Of a DNA stretch of 38,556 bases, positions 8,179 through 29,377 are shown one piece after another; position 1 is the stretch's first letter, and each line of letters opens with the position of its first letter. The translations under genes were made by a program, and so were the position numbers. The notes beneath the pieces were generated by a model. It searched no databases and was not told the origin of the DNA. It saw nothing but the letters and a program-made list of their open reading frames with translations. This DNA is from Clostridia bacterium (lineage in GTDB: Bacteria > Bacillota > Clostridia > HGM11514), in contig JAXEOR010000156.1 of the NCBI GenBank assembly GCA_034117945.1, forward strand, positions 1 through 38,556. Reading direction: 5' to 3'.

Positions 8179-8976
8179 TCAGCAGGACATATATTGCCTT
8201 GGGGACAGGCCTGTTTTTTGCTTAAATACCTTTGAAAAGTAAAAAGGATCCTTGTATCCGGATAAAGAGGCAATATCGCTCACGCTTGTCAACCCCTGCT
8301 TCATAAGCGTGCAGGCATACTGGATTCTGACCGTGTTTAAGTATTCTGTAAATCCCATGGACATTTCCTTTTTAAAAACACTTGAGATATAGTGAGGATT
8401 GTATGAAACGGCGTCACTGATTGTTTTCAGAGATAACCGGCAATTGGTCAGATTTTCATCAATATATTTTTTGATACACAAAAAGGCATCGGAGCGTTTG
8501 TCTGCGGCTTGCTCCTCATGCAGTGTTTTGGTGCCGATCAGCGTAAAGGTGTATAGCAAAATGCTTTCGCTGATTATATCTGTGAGCTGTTCGTTCACAT
8601 GAATGCCGTATTCCCAAAATGCGGCGGCTTCGCTACAGCCGGGAAAATAAAAGTTGTTTTTGGAAATCCCCGTCTTTTCCATGATTTGATTGCTTCTTGC
8701 GCCAAGAAAGCTGATATATAAATAAGTAAAATTTTCTTTGGATTCAATTTCAAAGGGAATTCCCGGAAAGGTGAAAAAAATATCCCCCTCGCAGCAAGGC
8801 TGAACCTTCCCTAAGGTATGCAGAAAGCCGGTTCCGCTGTAAACATAATACATTTTGAACACAGCCTCCGTTTTCAGGGAACGGTATTTCTGCGGCTTGG
8901 TTTCAAATACAAAATGAATGGTATGAATGGAATGCAAATCCTGATGATACGGAATAAAATGGCAGATGTTATTCAT
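8179..8976 (-). CDS. AraC-family transcriptional regulator
   Basis: The C-terminal double HTH carries the signature GYKDPFYFSKVFKQKTGLSPRQY. The N-terminus is cupin-like. The gene is divergent from the oxidoreductase/transporter genes. Confidence 0.85.
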   Translation of the reverse strand: MNNICHFIPYHQDLHSIHTIHFVFETKPQKYRSLKTEAVFKMYYVYSGTGFLHTLGKVQPCCEGDIFFTFPGIPFEIESKENFTYLYISFLGARSNQIMEKTGISKNNFYFPGCSEAAAFWEYGIHVNEQLTDIISESILLYTFTLIGTKTLHEEQAADKRSDAFLCIKKYIDENLTNCRLSLKTISDAVSYNPHYISSVFKKEMSMGFTEYLNTVRIQYACTLMKQGLTSVSDIASLSGYKDPFYFSKVFKQKTGLSPRQYMSC

Positions 8977-23415: not shown

Positions 23416-23444
23416 TTGACAAAACTCTCTCCGTCTGCTATAAT
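23416..23444 (+). promoter_or_regulatory. Sigma-A promoter of tRNA-Leu
   Basis: TTGACA (23416-23421), a 17-nt spacer, then an extended -10 TGCTATAAT (TATAAT at 23439-23444). It lies about 30 nt upstream of the tRNA. Confidence 0.75.
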
Positions 23445-23476
23445 ATATAAATGTGTTAGGAAGATTTCTTCCTCAT

Positions 23477-23563
23477 GCGGATATGGCGGAATTGGCAGAC
23501 GCGCATGGTTCAGGTCCATGTGAGAGCAATCTCATGGAGGTTCAAGTCCTCTTATCCGCACCA
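23477..23563 (+). tRNA. tRNA-Leu (anticodon CAG), class II with a long variable arm and encoded CCA
   Basis: Cloverleaf folded by hand. Acceptor GCGGATA/TATCCGC. Anticodon stem CATGG/CCATG with loop TTCAGGT. Variable arm TGAGA-GCAA-TCTCA. T-loop TTCAAGT. 3' ACCA. Confidence 0.9.
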
Positions 23564-23685
23564 CGTCGGAACGGACTTTGCTCCGTTCCGATTTTTCTTT
23601 GTAGAAAAATCAGTCACACGCTCCGTCGTTCCTCCTTTTTCGTGAAAAGTCACGCTCAGTTCGCCTGCTCGTTTGCAAACGCACT
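23564..23685 (+). repeat. Left copy of an imperfect inverted repeat directly 3' of tRNA-Leu
   Basis: It shares an ordered module with the reverse complement of 26170-26292. The module is CGTCGGA, a terminator hairpin, TTTTTCTTTnnAGAAAAA, a 22-nt perfect core TCCTCCTTTTTCGTGAAAAGTC (23630-23651), then TTTGCAAnCGCA. Confidence 0.7.
23566..23596 (+). terminator. Intrinsic terminator of tRNA-Leu
   Basis: Perfect 10-bp stem TCGGAACGGA / TCCGTTCCGA with a 6-nt loop, followed by TTTTT. Confidence 0.85.
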
Positions 23686-23960
23686 CGCGACGGCTCACAA
23701 TCGCTACCAACTTTTCACGATATTGCGCCTTCGGCGCAGCCAAAATCCCCTGTCGCTACTGTGTTTGCGGGCAAGTCCTGTAAGAACACGCGCACCATAC
23801 AGTAGAAATCCGAACCTTGTACCAATCGGTGAAGGGTTCGGATTTTTGTTTCTGTGGATTATTGTATTACGAAAAGACGATCCGGTCTGCATCTTGCGCC
23901 TTACCGGTACGTTTTTGCATTTGCGTTTCTTCTTCTCGTTTAAAGGAATTCAACAAGTCT

Positions 23961-25955
23961 TTAATTGATTCCAAAGGGAGCTTTTTTGAACTTGATACCG
24001 AAAAACGCTTTTGATTCCTCGAGATTCATAACGACCCATTCACGAGACTTTCTGGCCTCCAGGGTTTCAGGCAGCTCTTTGATCAGTCGATCCGCTTCAT
24101 ATGGTGCGCCGGCATTATAGCGAAGCTCGTTACTTCTTTTATCAATCACAAATGACTTTTTGCTTGTCTTCCAAGCGGAGCATACTGTCTTGATTGCATA
24201 TTTTCCGGTAACTTGTTCGTTAAAATAATTGTCCAGCGTCAGAGGGCGGATATATTCCGGTACGTCGGCATTTTCGCGGATCATTGACACAATAATATCC
24301 GAAGAATATTTTAAAATATCCGGAGCACTTTCCATATCATCCGATTTCATTGATTCGATCAGATCAGGAATAATGTCAAACATTCTGCGGAGGTACTCAC
24401 GGTAAAATCCTGTTCCGATTTCTTTTTGCACAAATCTGACCACATTGCTTTTCATTACTTCTGTATTTGTTAACCCTGCTTCCACCCGGCAAATCACCGT
24501 CCGCCTGATGACCTCCGGGGAAACAGCCTTAACGTCTTCGTTTGCACTGATCACAACCGCCGAGTAATTTGTAAGATGATCGGCAATTCCAAAATCATCG
24601 GTTTTGATGGTTTCAATGGCATGCTGATTAAAGCGCGTGTTGACCATATCGTCTACAATAATCGGCGCCCCCTGGACGGTGCGCTTTAAGCCCTCTATAC
24701 TGGAACGGGTAAATTCTTGGGCAGCAATTTTCGGCTTTTGTCCAATCATCATTTTCAGCAAGGTTTCAAGAAAGCTTGTTTTGCCGGCTTTGCTTTGGCC
24801 GTATACCAGCCCGAAAACAGGGTAGGGAAGGCGGTTTTGATTAAAACGCGCCGCCATATCACGCATGATAGCCATAAAGGGCGAACAGAAAAACCAGTTT
24901 GCAAATTCAAAATAGCGATACTGCATCCCGATATAATCACCGTGAAAACGGCTGTATCCGTCCATGTATTTGAGAAACAGCTCTACATCCCTTTTCACTT
25001 CCTCATTTGAGGGATTCAGATCCAGCTTTTCGTCGTTCAAGGTTGCAGTTCCGCTAAAAACGTCCAGTACCAACTGAGGATATTCATTTCGGAGCTCCTT
25101 TGTTTTGATGGCTTCCTCTTGGATATGTTTTTTAATCTTTACAAGCGTATCCGGCATCACTCTGATCTTCCCGGTTTTCTTATCGGGCTTTGGAAGCATC
25201 GGTTCCAGCTTTTCGGCGAGATTACGCGTTTCTAACGTAAACTCAATTTCAGCAGCATTCTCTTTGACAGGTTCAAGCACAATGGCTTTTGTTGATGCAA
25301 TGGTTTTGGAAATAGGCAACTGGTCAAGATTATCGGCCAGATCGGAAAAAAGCAGTGATTTGTGACTGATCTCATCTGTGCTGTTTTCCTTCAGACTATT
25401 GAAAACACTTAAGTACCAGTCATAGGCAGGATCCCCGTCAAGATAACAAATATTTTCTCTCTGGCGGCCTCCAAATGCGTTATAAGACAGATTGGCAGAA
25501 CCCATAATCACTCTTTTTCTGCCGTCTTCCGAGGATAACAGATATATTTTTTCATGGGAAAGCTGCGTTCTTGCAACGTATAAATGCACTTCACCCTGGT
25601 CGATTCTGCCAAGGATTTTGTCTTTTATTTTATTCGGTGCTTTTCTGATTCTTTCAATCAGCTGATTTTGAAATGCCATAATTTCCTGTAACTGATAAGA
25701 CATCACAGCTTCGCAGCCGAAAATGATTTCGCTTTCCTGAAAAAAATCAAGCAGCTTTCCAATAAAGTTTATCCCGGAAGAATAGGTAATTGCTTTTAAG
25801 GATGAAAAGCCCTGGAACAGTTCTTTCCACTCAACCGATTCGGCACCCAAATAGTCCATCTTGACCACGTCAATTTTGCCCGATACATCACCGAGCAGGG
25901 ATGTTTGATCAGTGAAATCATCAAATAATTGCTGCTGTATCATCTCCTGTTTCAT
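23961..25955 (-). CDS. Fusion protein: N-terminal single-HKD PLD-family nuclease domain plus C-terminal P-loop NTPase (664 aa); candidate defence or mobile-element protein
   Basis: I chose ATG 25955 because an AAGGAGA RBS precedes it; the ORF track starts at 26009. The HKD-type motif SHEKIYLLSSEDGRKRVIMGSANLS has H134 and K136 (nt 25548-25556) and GSAN at residues 152-155. Walker A is GQSKAGKT (nt 24777-24800). Walker B is PIIVDD. A VVISAN strand follows. Confidence 0.7.
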   Translation of the reverse strand: MKQEMIQQQLFDDFTDQTSLLGDVSGKIDVVKMDYLGAESVEWKELFQGFSSLKAITYSSGINFIGKLLDFFQESEIIFGCEAVMSYQLQEIMAFQNQLIERIRKAPNKIKDKILGRIDQGEVHLYVARTQLSHEKIYLLSSEDGRKRVIMGSANLSYNAFGGRQRENICYLDGDPAYDWYLSVFNSLKENSTDEISHKSLLFSDLADNLDQLPISKTIASTKAIVLEPVKENAAEIEFTLETRNLAEKLEPMLPKPDKKTGKIRVMPDTLVKIKKHIQEEAIKTKELRNEYPQLVLDVFSGTATLNDEKLDLNPSNEEVKRDVELFLKYMDGYSRFHGDYIGMQYRYFEFANWFFCSPFMAIMRDMAARFNQNRLPYPVFGLVYGQSKAGKTSFLETLLKMMIGQKPKIAAQEFTRSSIEGLKRTVQGAPIIVDDMVNTRFNQHAIETIKTDDFGIADHLTNYSAVVISANEDVKAVSPEVIRRTVICRVEAGLTNTEVMKSNVVRFVQKEIGTGFYREYLRRMFDIIPDLIESMKSDDMESAPDILKYSSDIIVSMIRENADVPEYIRPLTLDNYFNEQVTGKYAIKTVCSAWKTSKKSFVIDKRSNELRYNAGAPYEADRLIKELPETLEARKSREWVVMNLEESKAFFGIKFKKAPFGIN

Positions 25956-26026
25956 AGTGGTCTCCTTGAAAAAATAGTAAAAATATTTTTGGATCTTCCT
26001 TTGAATCAATATTCCAACCTAATTTT

Positions 26027-26055
26027 AGTATAGTATATTTTGGTATCAAAAGCAA
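26027..26055 (-). promoter_or_regulatory. Candidate promoter of the PLD/P-loop gene
   Basis: On the minus strand: TTGCTT (26050-26055), a 17-nt spacer, then TATACT (26027-26032). It lies about 70 nt upstream of the start. Confidence 0.4.
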
Positions 26056-26169
26056 GAACGATTACAGATTTGTTAAGGCGGCAGTGATCCGGCGGGATCA
26101 AAAAGCAGATTTTTTCAAGCTTTAAAAAACCTCTTACTCGCAAAAAGGTGGTAGTGCAGTGAAGGCGTG

Positions 26170-26292
26170 ATGCCTGCGCTTGCAAAGGCATAACCGCAGC
26201 AAACGAGACTTTTCACGAAAAAGGAGGAGCAAGGAAGCGAGCGGATGTTTTTCTGTAAAGAAAAACGGAGCAAAGCGAACTTTGCTCCGACG
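26170..26292 (-). repeat. Right copy of the inverted repeat directly 3' of tRNA-Glu
   Basis: The plus strand at 26207-26228, GACTTTTCACGAAAAAGGAGGA, is the exact reverse complement of 23630-23651. The flanking modules are collinear with the left copy. Confidence 0.7.
26261..26289 (-). terminator. Intrinsic terminator of tRNA-Glu
   Basis: CGGAGCAAAG (26266-26275) / CTTTGCTCCG (26280-26289) stem, with a T-run on the minus strand (26261-26265). Confidence 0.8.
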
Positions 26293-26367
26293 TGGTGACC
26301 CGTGGGGGAATCGAACCCCCGTTATCGCCGTGAAAGGGCGGTGTCTTAACCGCTTGACCAACGGGCC
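26293..26367 (-). tRNA. tRNA-Glu (anticodon UUC), encoded CCA
   Basis: The minus strand reads GGCCCGTTGGTCAAGCGGTTAAGACACCGCCCTTTCACGGCGATAACGGGGGTTCGATTCCCCCACGGGTCACCA. The anticodon loop is CTTTCAC. The anticodon arm is nearly identical to that of E. coli tRNA-Glu. Confidence 0.9.
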
Positions 26368-26540
26368 ATAGATCATAAAATAAAAAATGCTTGCCGCTGT
26401 CTTTGAGACAATGCTTTTTGCAAGTGTTTTCGCCAAAAAGCAACCCGGCTCAATTGATCCTTTACTATTATACTCTATATTATGTTGTTTGTCAAGAAAA
26501 ATATTTAAAAACTTGTTATTTTTTTATTTTTTCTGCGGTA

Positions 26541-27265: not shown

Positions 27266-28307
27266 AGCGATGATCAATACCCTCGTCCAAACCCATGATT
27301 TACCGGAGGACGAGCTGAAGGAGCTCCTGGAAACCTCCGCCTCTGACACGCTGCTGTTCTCAGCCGCAGACAAGGTCAGGCGAAGTATATACGGCGACGA
27401 GGTATATCTCCGGGGACTTATCGAGTTTACCAATTACTGCAAAAACAACTGTTATTACTGCGGCATTCGAAGGGACAACAAAGAGGCAGTGCGGTACCGT
27501 CTTGACAAGGAAGAAATTCTCGCCTGCTGCAAGGAGGGCTATGCCCTGGGATTTCGCACCTTTGTGCTGCAGGGCGGAGAGGATCCCTTTTACAACGATC
27601 AGATGATCTGCGAAATTGTTTCTGCCATACGGGAGCAGTTTGCAGACTGCGCCATCACCCTTTCCATCGGAGAAAAAAGCAGAAAAAGCTATCTTGATTA
27701 CTACAACGCAGGCGCAAACCGGTATCTGTTAAGGCATGAAACCGCAGAGGAGGCTCACTACCGCAGACTTCATCCTGACAGTATGAGCCTGAAAAACCGA
27801 AAGCGGTGCTTGTTTGATTTAAAGGAAATTGGCTATCAGGTGGGAAGCGGCTTTATGGTAGGCTCTCCCGATCAGACAACCCAAAATTTAATTGCCGATC
27901 TGCGTTTTTTACAGGAATTAAAGCCGGACATGATCGGGATCGGCCCCTATCTCACCCACCATCAAACCCCCTTTGCAGGTTGCCCTGACGGCAGTCTGGC
28001 TTTGACGCTGCGGATGATTTCCCTAGTCAGACTTATGTTTCCTTATGGGCTGATTCCGGCTACAACAGCCCTGGGAACCATTCATCCCCAGGGGCGGGAG
28101 ATGGGACTGAAGGCCGGCGCCAATGTGGTAATGCCCAATCTTTCGCCCGTAAGAGTACGCAAGCTTTACCAGCTTTATGAAAATAAGATTTGTACCGGCG
28201 AGGAGGCGGCGCAATGCCGGGGGTGCCTGGAGCGCCGGGTGGAGTCGGCGGGCTACCGGGTTGTTACCGCAATCGGTGATGTGAAAAAAGGAGGCGGGAT
28301 CGGATGA
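27240..28307 (+). CDS. hydE: [FeFe]-hydrogenase maturase HydE (radical SAM)
   Basis: LRGLIEFTNYCKNNCYYCGIRRDN contains the CxxxCxxC motif in the HydE-typical context. The size is about 350 aa. The start is uncertain (GTG 27240, ATG 27252 or ATG 27270) because the ORF overlaps the upstream gene. Confidence 0.75.
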   Translation: MKAFMKQFEAMINTLVQTHDLPEDELKELLETSASDTLLFSAADKVRRSIYGDEVYLRGLIEFTNYCKNNCYYCGIRRDNKEAVRYRLDKEEILACCKEGYALGFRTFVLQGGEDPFYNDQMICEIVSAIREQFADCAITLSIGEKSRKSYLDYYNAGANRYLLRHETAEEAHYRRLHPDSMSLKNRKRCLFDLKEIGYQVGSGFMVGSPDQTTQNLIADLRFLQELKPDMIGIGPYLTHHQTPFAGCPDGSLALTLRMISLVRLMFPYGLIPATTALGTIHPQGREMGLKAGANVVMPNLSPVRVRKLYQLYENKICTGEEAAQCRGCLERRVESAGYRVVTAIGDVKKGGGIG

Positions 28308-29377
28308 ATCAAAAGGCTTTGATTGCCATGAGCGGCGGTGTGGATTCCAGCGTGGCCGCATACCTGATTAAGGAGCAGGGTTATGAATGTATGGGCGCAA
28401 CCATGAAGCTGTTTCAAAGCCGGGAGGGATGCGCTCCCCGAGAAAACTCCTGCTGCTCCTTAGCGGATGTGGCAGATGCCAGAAGCGTTGCTTATACTTT
28501 GAACATTCCCTATTATGTGTTCAACTTTACCGATCGGTTTCAAAGGGACGTGATTGACCGGTTTGTAGCCGCTTATGAAACAGGAGCAACCCCCAACCCC
28601 TGTATTGACTGTAACCGGTATCTGAAATTTGAAAAGCTGTTTCAGCGAGCCAAGGAATTGTATTACGACTATGTTGTTACCGGTCATTATGCTCGGATTG
28701 AATGGGACAGGGGCTCCGGCCGGTTTCTGCTGAAAAAGGCCGTTGACGAAACAAAGGATCAAAGCTATGTGCTTTATGCCATGACTCAGGAGCAGCTTGC
28801 CCATACCCTGTTTCCCCTGGGCAGCCTGCGCAAAGCGCAGGTGCGCCAAATTGCCCGGGAGCAGGGCTTTGTGAATGCCAAAAAGCGTGACAGTCAGGAT
28901 ATATGCTTTGTGCAGCAGGGAAGCTATGCCGATTTTATAGAAGACTATACCGGAAAAGTATATCCGCCCGGCAACTTTATTTCTCAGGACGGCACTGTTT
29001 TGGGAACGCACAAAGGCATCATTCACTATACCGTGGGACAGCGCAGGGGGCTGGGCATTTCCTATGAGGAGCCCCTGTATGTGACGGCGGTCAACCCTGC
29101 TGACAACACCGTTACCCTGGGAACAAGCAATGATTTGTATTCCAAAACCCTGACCGCAGGCAATGTGAATCTCATTGGGGCGGAAAGACTGGACAAGCCG
29201 GTTCGTGTCAAAGCGAAGGTGCGCTACCGCCAGCCGGAGCAGCCCGCAACCCTGATCCAAACAGGCGAGGATTCTGTTACGGTCGAGTTTGATCAGCCTC
29301 AAAGAGCGGTTACCAAGGGGCAGGCCGTTGTGTTTTATGAGGGCGATGTGGTTTTGGGGGGCGGAACCATCCAATGA
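28304..29377 (+). CDS. mnmA: tRNA 2-thiouridine(34) synthase MnmA
   Basis: The PP-loop AMSGGVDSSVAA and the conserved Cys (NPCIDCN) are present. The size is 357 aa. Confidence 0.9.
   Translation: MNQKALIAMSGGVDSSVAAYLIKEQGYECMGATMKLFQSREGCAPRENSCCSLADVADARSVAYTLNIPYYVFNFTDRFQRDVIDRFVAAYETGATPNPCIDCNRYLKFEKLFQRAKELYYDYVVTGHYARIEWDRGSGRFLLKKAVDETKDQSYVLYAMTQEQLAHTLFPLGSLRKAQVRQIAREQGFVNAKKRDSQDICFVQQGSYADFIEDYTGKVYPPGNFISQDGTVLGTHKGIIHYTVGQRRGLGISYEEPLYVTAVNPADNTVTLGTSNDLYSKTLTAGNVNLIGAERLDKPVRVKAKVRYRQPEQPATLIQTGEDSVTVEFDQPQRAVTKGQAVVFYEGDVVLGGGTIQ

Follow-up and report, generated by a model that had tools for sequence, protein, structure and literature searches.

A structured element that starts directly after tRNA genes in Clostridia, with two facing copies around a PLD gene

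When two similar sequences stand in opposite orientation on either side of an accessory-looking gene, are they the ends of a mobile unit, or does each belong to something else nearby? The question is raised by a 38,556-nt stretch of DNA from a Clostridia bacterium (GenBank assembly GCA_034117945.1, contig JAXEOR010000156.1; the whole stretch is referred to here as the window), in which a tRNA-Leu gene and a tRNA-Glu gene converge and face each other across 2.7 kb, with a gene for a PLD (NgoFVII-type)/PF27394 protein between them. A preliminary description had reported imperfect inverted repeats that begin at the first base after each tRNA, and had offered three explanations: a conserved tRNA-trailer or small-RNA module, the terminal inverted repeats of a transposon-like unit with the PLD/P-loop gene as its cargo, or the remnants of an inversion or recombination. 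The first of these has gained support, in that the repeat is a multicopy module that starts after the CCA of many different tRNAs and whose stems covary on the tRNA-sense strand; for the third we found no evidence. It is well supported that the two arms are independent members of a family and not the ends of a mobile unit, and this family probably consists of tRNA-end terminators, each coupled to a structured RNA, that have been relocated among tRNA 3′ ends.

The resemblance between the two trailers is real, as three approaches agree. When aligned in tRNA sense, they share 80% mean column identity over 206 columns; blastn pairs 91 nt at 77% identity (E = 5e-11); and a hidden Markov model (HMM) of the family extends the shared similarity to about 183 nt, well past the 100–120 nt first estimated. 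All of the modules originally listed are present in both trailers and in the same order, including CGTCGGA next to CCA, a GC-rich hairpin with a T-run behind it, an exact 22-mer (23630–23651 and 26207–26228) and a TTTGCAA(A/G)CGCA element. At up to three mismatches the 22-mer finds two sites only in the window, with 0 expected from 100 shuffles. In both copies the first hairpin (T1) begins 1–4 bases past CCA, and a terminator scan calls it at 23565–23592 on the left and at 26289–26266 on the right, in each case behind a promoter that matches the consensus at 12 of 12 positions (Table 1). Folding is more stable than that of shuffled sequence for both window copies (z = −4.4 and z = −3.5). That the copies look inverted is due to the opposed directions of tRNA-Leu and tRNA-Glu, each of which is followed by a copy of its own.

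Table 1. Features of the tRNA-Leu to tRNA-Glu interval in window coordinates; features on the minus strand that are read from the tRNA-Glu side are given in that direction.
Feature	Position	Strand	Remarks
tRNA-Leu promoter	23416–23444	+	TTGACA-17-TATAAT, 12/12, TG extended
tRNA-Leu(CAG)	23477–23563	+	CCA encoded; ARAGORN
Left element copy	23564–23746	+	family HMM positions 1–183
Left T1, intrinsic terminator hairpin and U-tract	23565–23602	+	strand A 23568–23576, strand B 23582–23589
Left hairpin 2, U-run/A-run palindrome	23592–23609	+
Left B′ segment	23620–23636	+	B′ 23625–23632, alternative partner of T1 strand A; runs into invariant single-stranded TCCTCCT 23630–23636
Left long covarying hairpin	23639–23721	+	12-bp basal helix, 23639–23650 with 23710–23721
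Contents of left long hairpin		+	apical TTTGCAAACGCA 23672–23683; invariant CTACCA 23704–23709
Left 3′ hairpin T2	23725–23737	+	GCGCC-UUCG-GGCGC
Hairpin ending the PLD gene	23806–23845	not assigned	outside the element
PLD (NgoFVII-type)/PF27394 gene	23961–25955	-	between the copies; unlinked to the element family
Right TCCTCCT and long hairpin	26137–26228	-	TCCTCCT 26228–26222; basal helix 26219–26208 with 26148–26137, two G-U pairs
Right A/T palindrome	26248–26265	-
Right T1 terminator hairpin	26289–26266	-	U-tract next at 26256–26265
Right element copy	26292–26109	-	HMM, about positions 1–183; subtype differs from left
tRNA-Glu(UUC)	26293–26367	-	CCA encoded; ARAGORN
tRNA-Glu promoter	26467–26495	-	12/12 consensus

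Read as RNA from the CCA onwards, a copy of the element is laid out as CGUC, the T1 hairpin (GGA...UCC) with its U-tract, a U-run/A-run hairpin, a segment termed B′, the motif UCCUCCU, an arm of about 70 nt that is closed by a 12-bp helix (helix 1) and holds an invariant CUACCA and UUGCAAGCGC, and lastly a 3′ UUCG hairpin (T2), a second terminator in many of the copies; the T-run that follows T2 in many other copies is missing from the left window copy. Among 111 aligned cores, helix 1 is 95% paired and shows compensatory changes in 8 of its 12 pairs. This helix is the internal pairing of CGTGAAAAGT with ACTTTTCACG that had already been spotted in the left copy, and it covaries over the 111 copies. 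All five measures of the whole structure beat 500 of 500 shuffles, and slid controls fall to 43–54% paired. At the paired cells of the stems, G-U combinations strongly outnumber A-C, 264 to 52, which indicates that the fold is selected on the tRNA-sense strand. Judged from this pattern of sequence change, the fold is one that acts on that strand, as RNA or as single-stranded DNA. The most conserved bases of all are single-stranded, namely UCCUCCU just 5′ of helix 1 and CUACCA just 5′ of its 3′ strand.

Strand A, which forms the 5′ side of T1, has two partners. It covaries with strand B, with which it forms the terminator hairpin, and also with B′, which lies about 45 nt downstream. For 94 full-length copies RNAalifold chooses the long-range A:B′ helix, which is 93.4% paired compared with 79.5 ± 0.7% for shuffled partners, and some of its pairs occur as three Watson-Crick types. 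In 79 of the 94 copies, T1 folds at −8 kcal/mol or below and is then followed by a T-run. The proposed course of events is that T1 would stop most of the tRNA transcripts, and that transcripts which start at the very strong tRNA promoters and run past T1 would carry the folded domain as a selected RNA, which might act as a fail-safe module for termination or processing, or as a small RNA made from the trailer. Since strand A covaries with both B and B′, a portable terminate-or-cleave cassette for tRNA 3′ ends is also conceivable, in which the A:B′ helix of read-through transcripts, opening with a G-C pair (GGA...UCC) and followed by the invariant U-CC-U, would imitate an acceptor stem with NCCA. 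Such a mimic might recruit RNase P or another enzyme of tRNA ends, which would cut four bases past the upstream CCA, and the freed RNA, with its anti-Shine-Dalgarno UCCUCCU exposed, could act in trans. We give this idea a slim chance of being right.

If the arms were the ends of a PLD-carrying transposon, the module should travel with the gene, and the source genome (218 contigs, 2.12 Mb, 98% completeness) offers a first view of whether it does. It holds at least 12 copies at nine loci, and at least 10 copies beyond those of the window have no PLD neighbour. Copies lie directly after tRNA-Arg(ACG), tRNA-Val(UAC) and tRNA-Cys(GCA), the last of which has two copies in its trailer, one of them cut by the contig end. 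Others are placed differently: C29 (C and L labels are our own handles) has two tandem copies that are intergenic and without a tRNA, C70 has one copy 3′ of rpsI, and C15 has at least three tandem copies at a contig end. It had been suggested that a module found downstream of most tRNA or terminator sites, whether or not the PLD gene is near, would be a generic trailer; it does occur independently of that gene, but it opens the trailer of seven of the 25 cluster-terminal tRNAs and not of most. Two trailers hold only the front of the module. Behind tRNA-Leu(GAG), at C91:11913–11970 on the minus strand, there is a 58-nt 5′ part only, comprising T1, the A/T palindrome and the spacer, with the similarity ending where B′ would start; behind tRNA-Ala(GGC), at C97:5801–5839 on the minus strand, the T1 hairpin stands alone. 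These front-only modules could be empty-site-like states or deletions.

The gene, for its part, also occurs without the module. Homologs of the PLD protein at 83%, 76% and 69% identity occupy three unrelated neighbourhoods, in none of which a module or a tRNA lies within 4 kb. The two arms are about 77% identical to each other, belong to different subtypes, are each nearer to copies elsewhere than to their partner, and each abut their own tRNA with a gap of 0; no direct repeats flank the supposed unit, and the order module-PLD-module does not recur around these homologs. What speaks for terminal inverted repeats is that two inverted copies bracket one accessory-looking gene, and that many of the more than 1800 relatives of the PLD/PF27394 protein lie on contigs of 2–3 kb, which suggests flanking repeats. 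With module and PLD homologs occurring apart, we regard the transposon-ends explanation as scarcely credible. The neighbourhoods of the PLD/PF27394 relatives vary and include SLFN/AlbA_2-Fic genes, an IS110 fragment and an ECF transporter; the gene fits a mobile, single-gene, defence-like islet. On the far side of tRNA-Glu, the mnmA gene of the window (28304–29377) is 42–46% identical to the mnmA of congeners, and a second copy of mnmA is present in the source genome on C25, so the right flank of tRNA-Glu may also be accessory DNA.

Beyond this genome, the distribution of the element was followed with a covariance model of its 134-nt core. The model detects the element in 11 of the 41 relatives and in 64 (16%) of 399 genomes taken in even proportion from the class; the carriers among the 399 belong to 45 of 218 genera and to more than 15 families. 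One 97%-complete congener has no copy. The copy number reaches 13 or more per genome (in the survey of 399 genomes a recorded number of 8 means at least 8). A pattern scan of species-representative genomes, for which the figures rest on the matches listed, adds at least about 98 loci with confirmed copies. Among these matches, nearly all come from Oscillospiraceae, Ruminococcaceae, Christensenellaceae and other Clostridia metagenome-assembled genomes of gut or rumen origin, together with the cultured strain Clostridium methylpentosum DSM 5476, whose copy (L102) stands behind tRNA-Ser(GGA).

The address of the element is equally characteristic. Of the 81 copies with a complete 5′ end among the matches listed, 42 stand directly after an intact co-oriented tRNA (called with ARAGORN on padded sequences with -l), 38 of them at gap 0, and the partners of these copies carry 24 different anticodons. 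The remaining 39 comprise nine copies downstream of a tRNA, at a distance of 13–400 nt that takes in another small element, seven after another copy of the module, six after a tRNA 3′ fragment (T-arm, acceptor strand and CCA), and 17 elsewhere; even in this group CCA precedes 21 and CA precedes 30. Rfam 15, searched at the gathering score and at permissive E-values with both window copies and seven other loci, returned tRNAs only, and the RtT family (RF00391) gave no match at the gathering score, nor at E up to 10 for the window or up to 1 for the other source-genome copies. Searching the literature with topic terms and with strings of the sequence turned up no account of the element, unnamed entries in large motif catalogues (e.g., PMC8040213) being beyond the reach of that search. 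Apparently, then, this family of structured tRNA-end elements has so far gone undescribed.

How did the element come to follow so many different tRNAs? Its patchy distribution, its many tRNA partners, the position of close relatives behind other tRNAs, the tandem arrays and the tail copies are the grounds on which we argue for relocation over evolutionary time. The left window copy, which follows tRNA-Leu, shares 87% identity with a copy that stands behind a tRNA-Pro fragment and 84% with copies that follow tRNA-Asn, all in other species, and the source-genome copies in general have their closest relatives behind different tRNAs in other species. A copy of the tail of the cognate tRNA lies downstream of 3 of 46 copies, compared with 1 of 360 non-cognate controls. 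The element would have passed from one tRNA 3′ end to another, and from lineage to lineage, through DNA-level recombination at the tRNA tail.

Several results weigh against this account and have to be set beside it. In nine of ten carrier genomes, the source genome among them, a Y1 transposase (PF01797) is either missing or left only as a fragment, and an RVT_1 reverse transcriptase (PF00078) is absent from eight of ten, including the source genome and a 100%-complete one; neither co-occurs with the module over 41 genomes. When the open reading frames (ORFs) within about 4–8 kb of the copies at 98 loci were clustered in search of a recurring neighbour protein, only spurious module frames and ABC transporters emerged. 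No empty site was found in congeners, synteny being lost: the region downstream of oadA is non-syntenic, the mnmA of the window is a divergent paralog, and the region downstream of rpsI differs in every relative; look-ups of the exact proteins of the flanking genes added nothing of use. Copies within a genome are old (55–83% identity, with a mean of 67% in the source genome) and bear no sign of recent movement. As to the RNA side of the proposal, the covariation controls leave subfamily relatedness in, T1 is thermodynamically far stronger than A:B′ in the window copies, and no promoter inside the element was recognised by eye.

Many of the same facts can be read as a purely vertical, non-mobile functional 3′ trailer, either a fail-safe terminator or a small RNA, whose copies are kept similar by selection and gene conversion. 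The strong purifying selection on single-stranded motifs together with covarying stems, the age of the within-genome copies, the lack of a linked transposase or reverse transcriptase, and an orientation that is always that of the tRNA are all as expected for such a trailer. It sits badly, however, with a presence in 16% of class genomes and none in the near-complete congener, with 24 tRNA partners and nearest relatives that follow other tRNAs in other species, with tandem arrays and copies distant from tRNAs, and with the occasional duplicates of the tRNA tail downstream. We consider that strict vertical descent has a modest chance of being correct.

The tRNA 3′ fragments ahead of some copies and the cognate tail repeats downstream of a few recall site-specific integration, and the modules could be seen as tRNA-proximal arms or scars of integrative elements, or as the front ends of cassettes, with the PLD gene as cargo of the Glu-side copy, which lies directly upstream of it in the same orientation. 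A layout that would suit such an origin is found at four loci (L070:1177–3812, L098:4892–6267, L174:1342–3009 and L042:1005–2298), where a tRNA and a full module are followed by 1–2.3 kb with genes for GNAT, GrpB or a Toprim/DUF3991 fragment and then by a 5′-truncated module; it looks like genes inserted between module copies. Against integration it must be said that no integrase or recurring protein lies near the copies, that no significant tRNA-tail direct repeat was detected within the window, and that PLD homologs elsewhere lack the module. The genes downstream of the copies show no distinctive preference for the same orientation, which a cassette front end would predict, with 50 co-oriented and 32 convergent (n = 82), and the G-U covariation points to a single-strand fold and not to duplex binding sites. 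We regard an integrative origin as unlikely.

A retroelement comparable to a short interspersed nuclear element (SINE) would generate the exact post-CCA junction in yet another way, with the trailer RNA copied by a reverse transcriptase and attached to tRNA 3′ ends through template switching. That the junction occurs behind any tRNA, that the tRNA 3′ fragments before copies vary in length, and that 19 of 114 copies are 5′-truncated would all follow from such a process. The truncation asymmetry is, however, partly an artefact of how loci were found, and RVT_1 is missing from most carriers, as noted above. At L142 the tRNA gene encodes no CCA and the copied tail has none either, a match that speaks for copying from DNA. 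Retrotransposition of the trailer therefore seems to us very improbable, and relocation by recombination at the tRNA tail remains the account that we prefer.

Among the known systems that come closest is the RtT RNA of the tyrT-tyrV operon of Escherichia coli (rtT, RF00391), a structured unit of about 170–180 nt behind a tRNA, possibly in tandem, that is released from the tRNA primary transcript. The element resembles it in being noncoding, structured and placed directly behind a co-oriented tRNA, with a gap of 0 at both window tRNAs, but RtT units each copy the 3′ end of the tRNA, a trait seen in 3 of 46 copies of the element and undetected in the window. This layout is better matched by a second small element (X) of about 130–210 nt, which lies between tRNA and module at several loci (L080:5354–5560, L133:4392–4605, L136:4438–4577, L142:4612–4814, L138:7580–7767, L064:3999–4128, L096:3887–4232 with two in tandem, and L086:~650–1150). 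It begins with a bidirectional terminator and the local T-arm copied in inverted orientation, continues with about 100 nt of structured body, and ends in a direct copy of the last 11–25 nt of the local tRNA.

The 3′ external transcribed spacer (3′ETS) RNAs, such as 3′ETS-leuZ of E. coli, are functional RNAs from tRNA trailers that are short, confined to a single locus and located upstream of the terminator; the conserved domain of the element differs in lying 3′ of a canonical terminator and in being multicopy. By analogy with such RNAs, the single-stranded UCCUCCU could serve as a seed against Shine-Dalgarno sequences. BOX, SPRITE and RUP of Streptococcus pneumoniae, as well as REP/BIME and ERIC sequences, are multicopy, noncoding intergenic elements of modular design with stable hairpins, often at the 3′ ends of transcription units, and for BOX and SPRITE we know of no established mechanism of mobilisation. 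The likeness to BOX and SPRITE is one of design only, and unlike the BOX and REP types the element has an exact post-CCA address, a fixed orientation to the tRNA and a built-in terminator, spans many families of a class with no more than 55–83% identity among the copies of one genome, and has no RAYT/Y1 transposase. Attachment (att) repeats, cis-mobilizable elements (CIMEs) and tandem accretion share with it the junction at tRNA 3′ ends, occasional duplicated tails and tandems; the element differs in having no linked integrase, in mostly having no tail repeat, and in covariation of the RNA type.

Four further candidates were set aside. A REP/BIME-RAYT system or a PATE derived from IS200/IS605 does not fit the hairpins, since T1 (GGAGCAAAG/CTTTGCTCC, with a variable, covarying stem) is unlike the 3′ hairpin (GCGCC/GGCGC). 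An integron attC site was rejected because the strands of helix 1 (UUCGCAAAAGGU/ACCUUUUGCGAG) are without GTTRRRY, although an integron integrase was not searched for. A miniature inverted-repeat transposable element (MITE) would call for ends that mirror each other, and here neither end (CGTCGGA... at the front, ...GCGCCTTCGGCGC at the back) is an inverted copy of the other; CCA flanks the element at its 5′ end, the 3′ flank varies, and there is no fixed target-site duplication. Lastly, a peptide encoded on the opposite strand, where a Shine-Dalgarno-like GGAGGA is present, was dropped by eye, as the frames vary between copies and the stems covary.

If the account given here is true, a considerable fraction of the Clostridia of gut and rumen carries an uncatalogued structured element with an architecture not described before for a bacterial repeat, in which the 5′ strand of a terminator has a second covarying partner and is followed by a conserved arm (about 70–95 nt). 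It would open to testing the question of what sets the sequence 3′ of bacterial tRNA genes, and would test whether trailers of the RtT type form a general class. It would also account for assembly breaks and spurious ORFs at tRNA loci, and for apparent inverted repeats around islets that are liable to be misread as transposon ends.

Two smaller observations concern the surroundings of the element. The sense frames of the module are free of stops, and a spurious ORF of 171 aa (23453–23968, plus strand) spans tRNA and module in the window; such ORFs through tRNA and module cluster across many loci and thereby mimic a protein family. Finally, the source genome contains another family of repeats with inverted arms, of the form ACTTATTCAC..TATTACCTATTCAC...GTCGATTTT(T)GGAAAGTAATA..GTGAAGAGTGAA; repeats of the ACTTATTCAC type are found behind rpsI at C70:10590–10700 (equivalent to L187:~480–590) and on C200 right after tRNA-Leu(UAA) at 8537.

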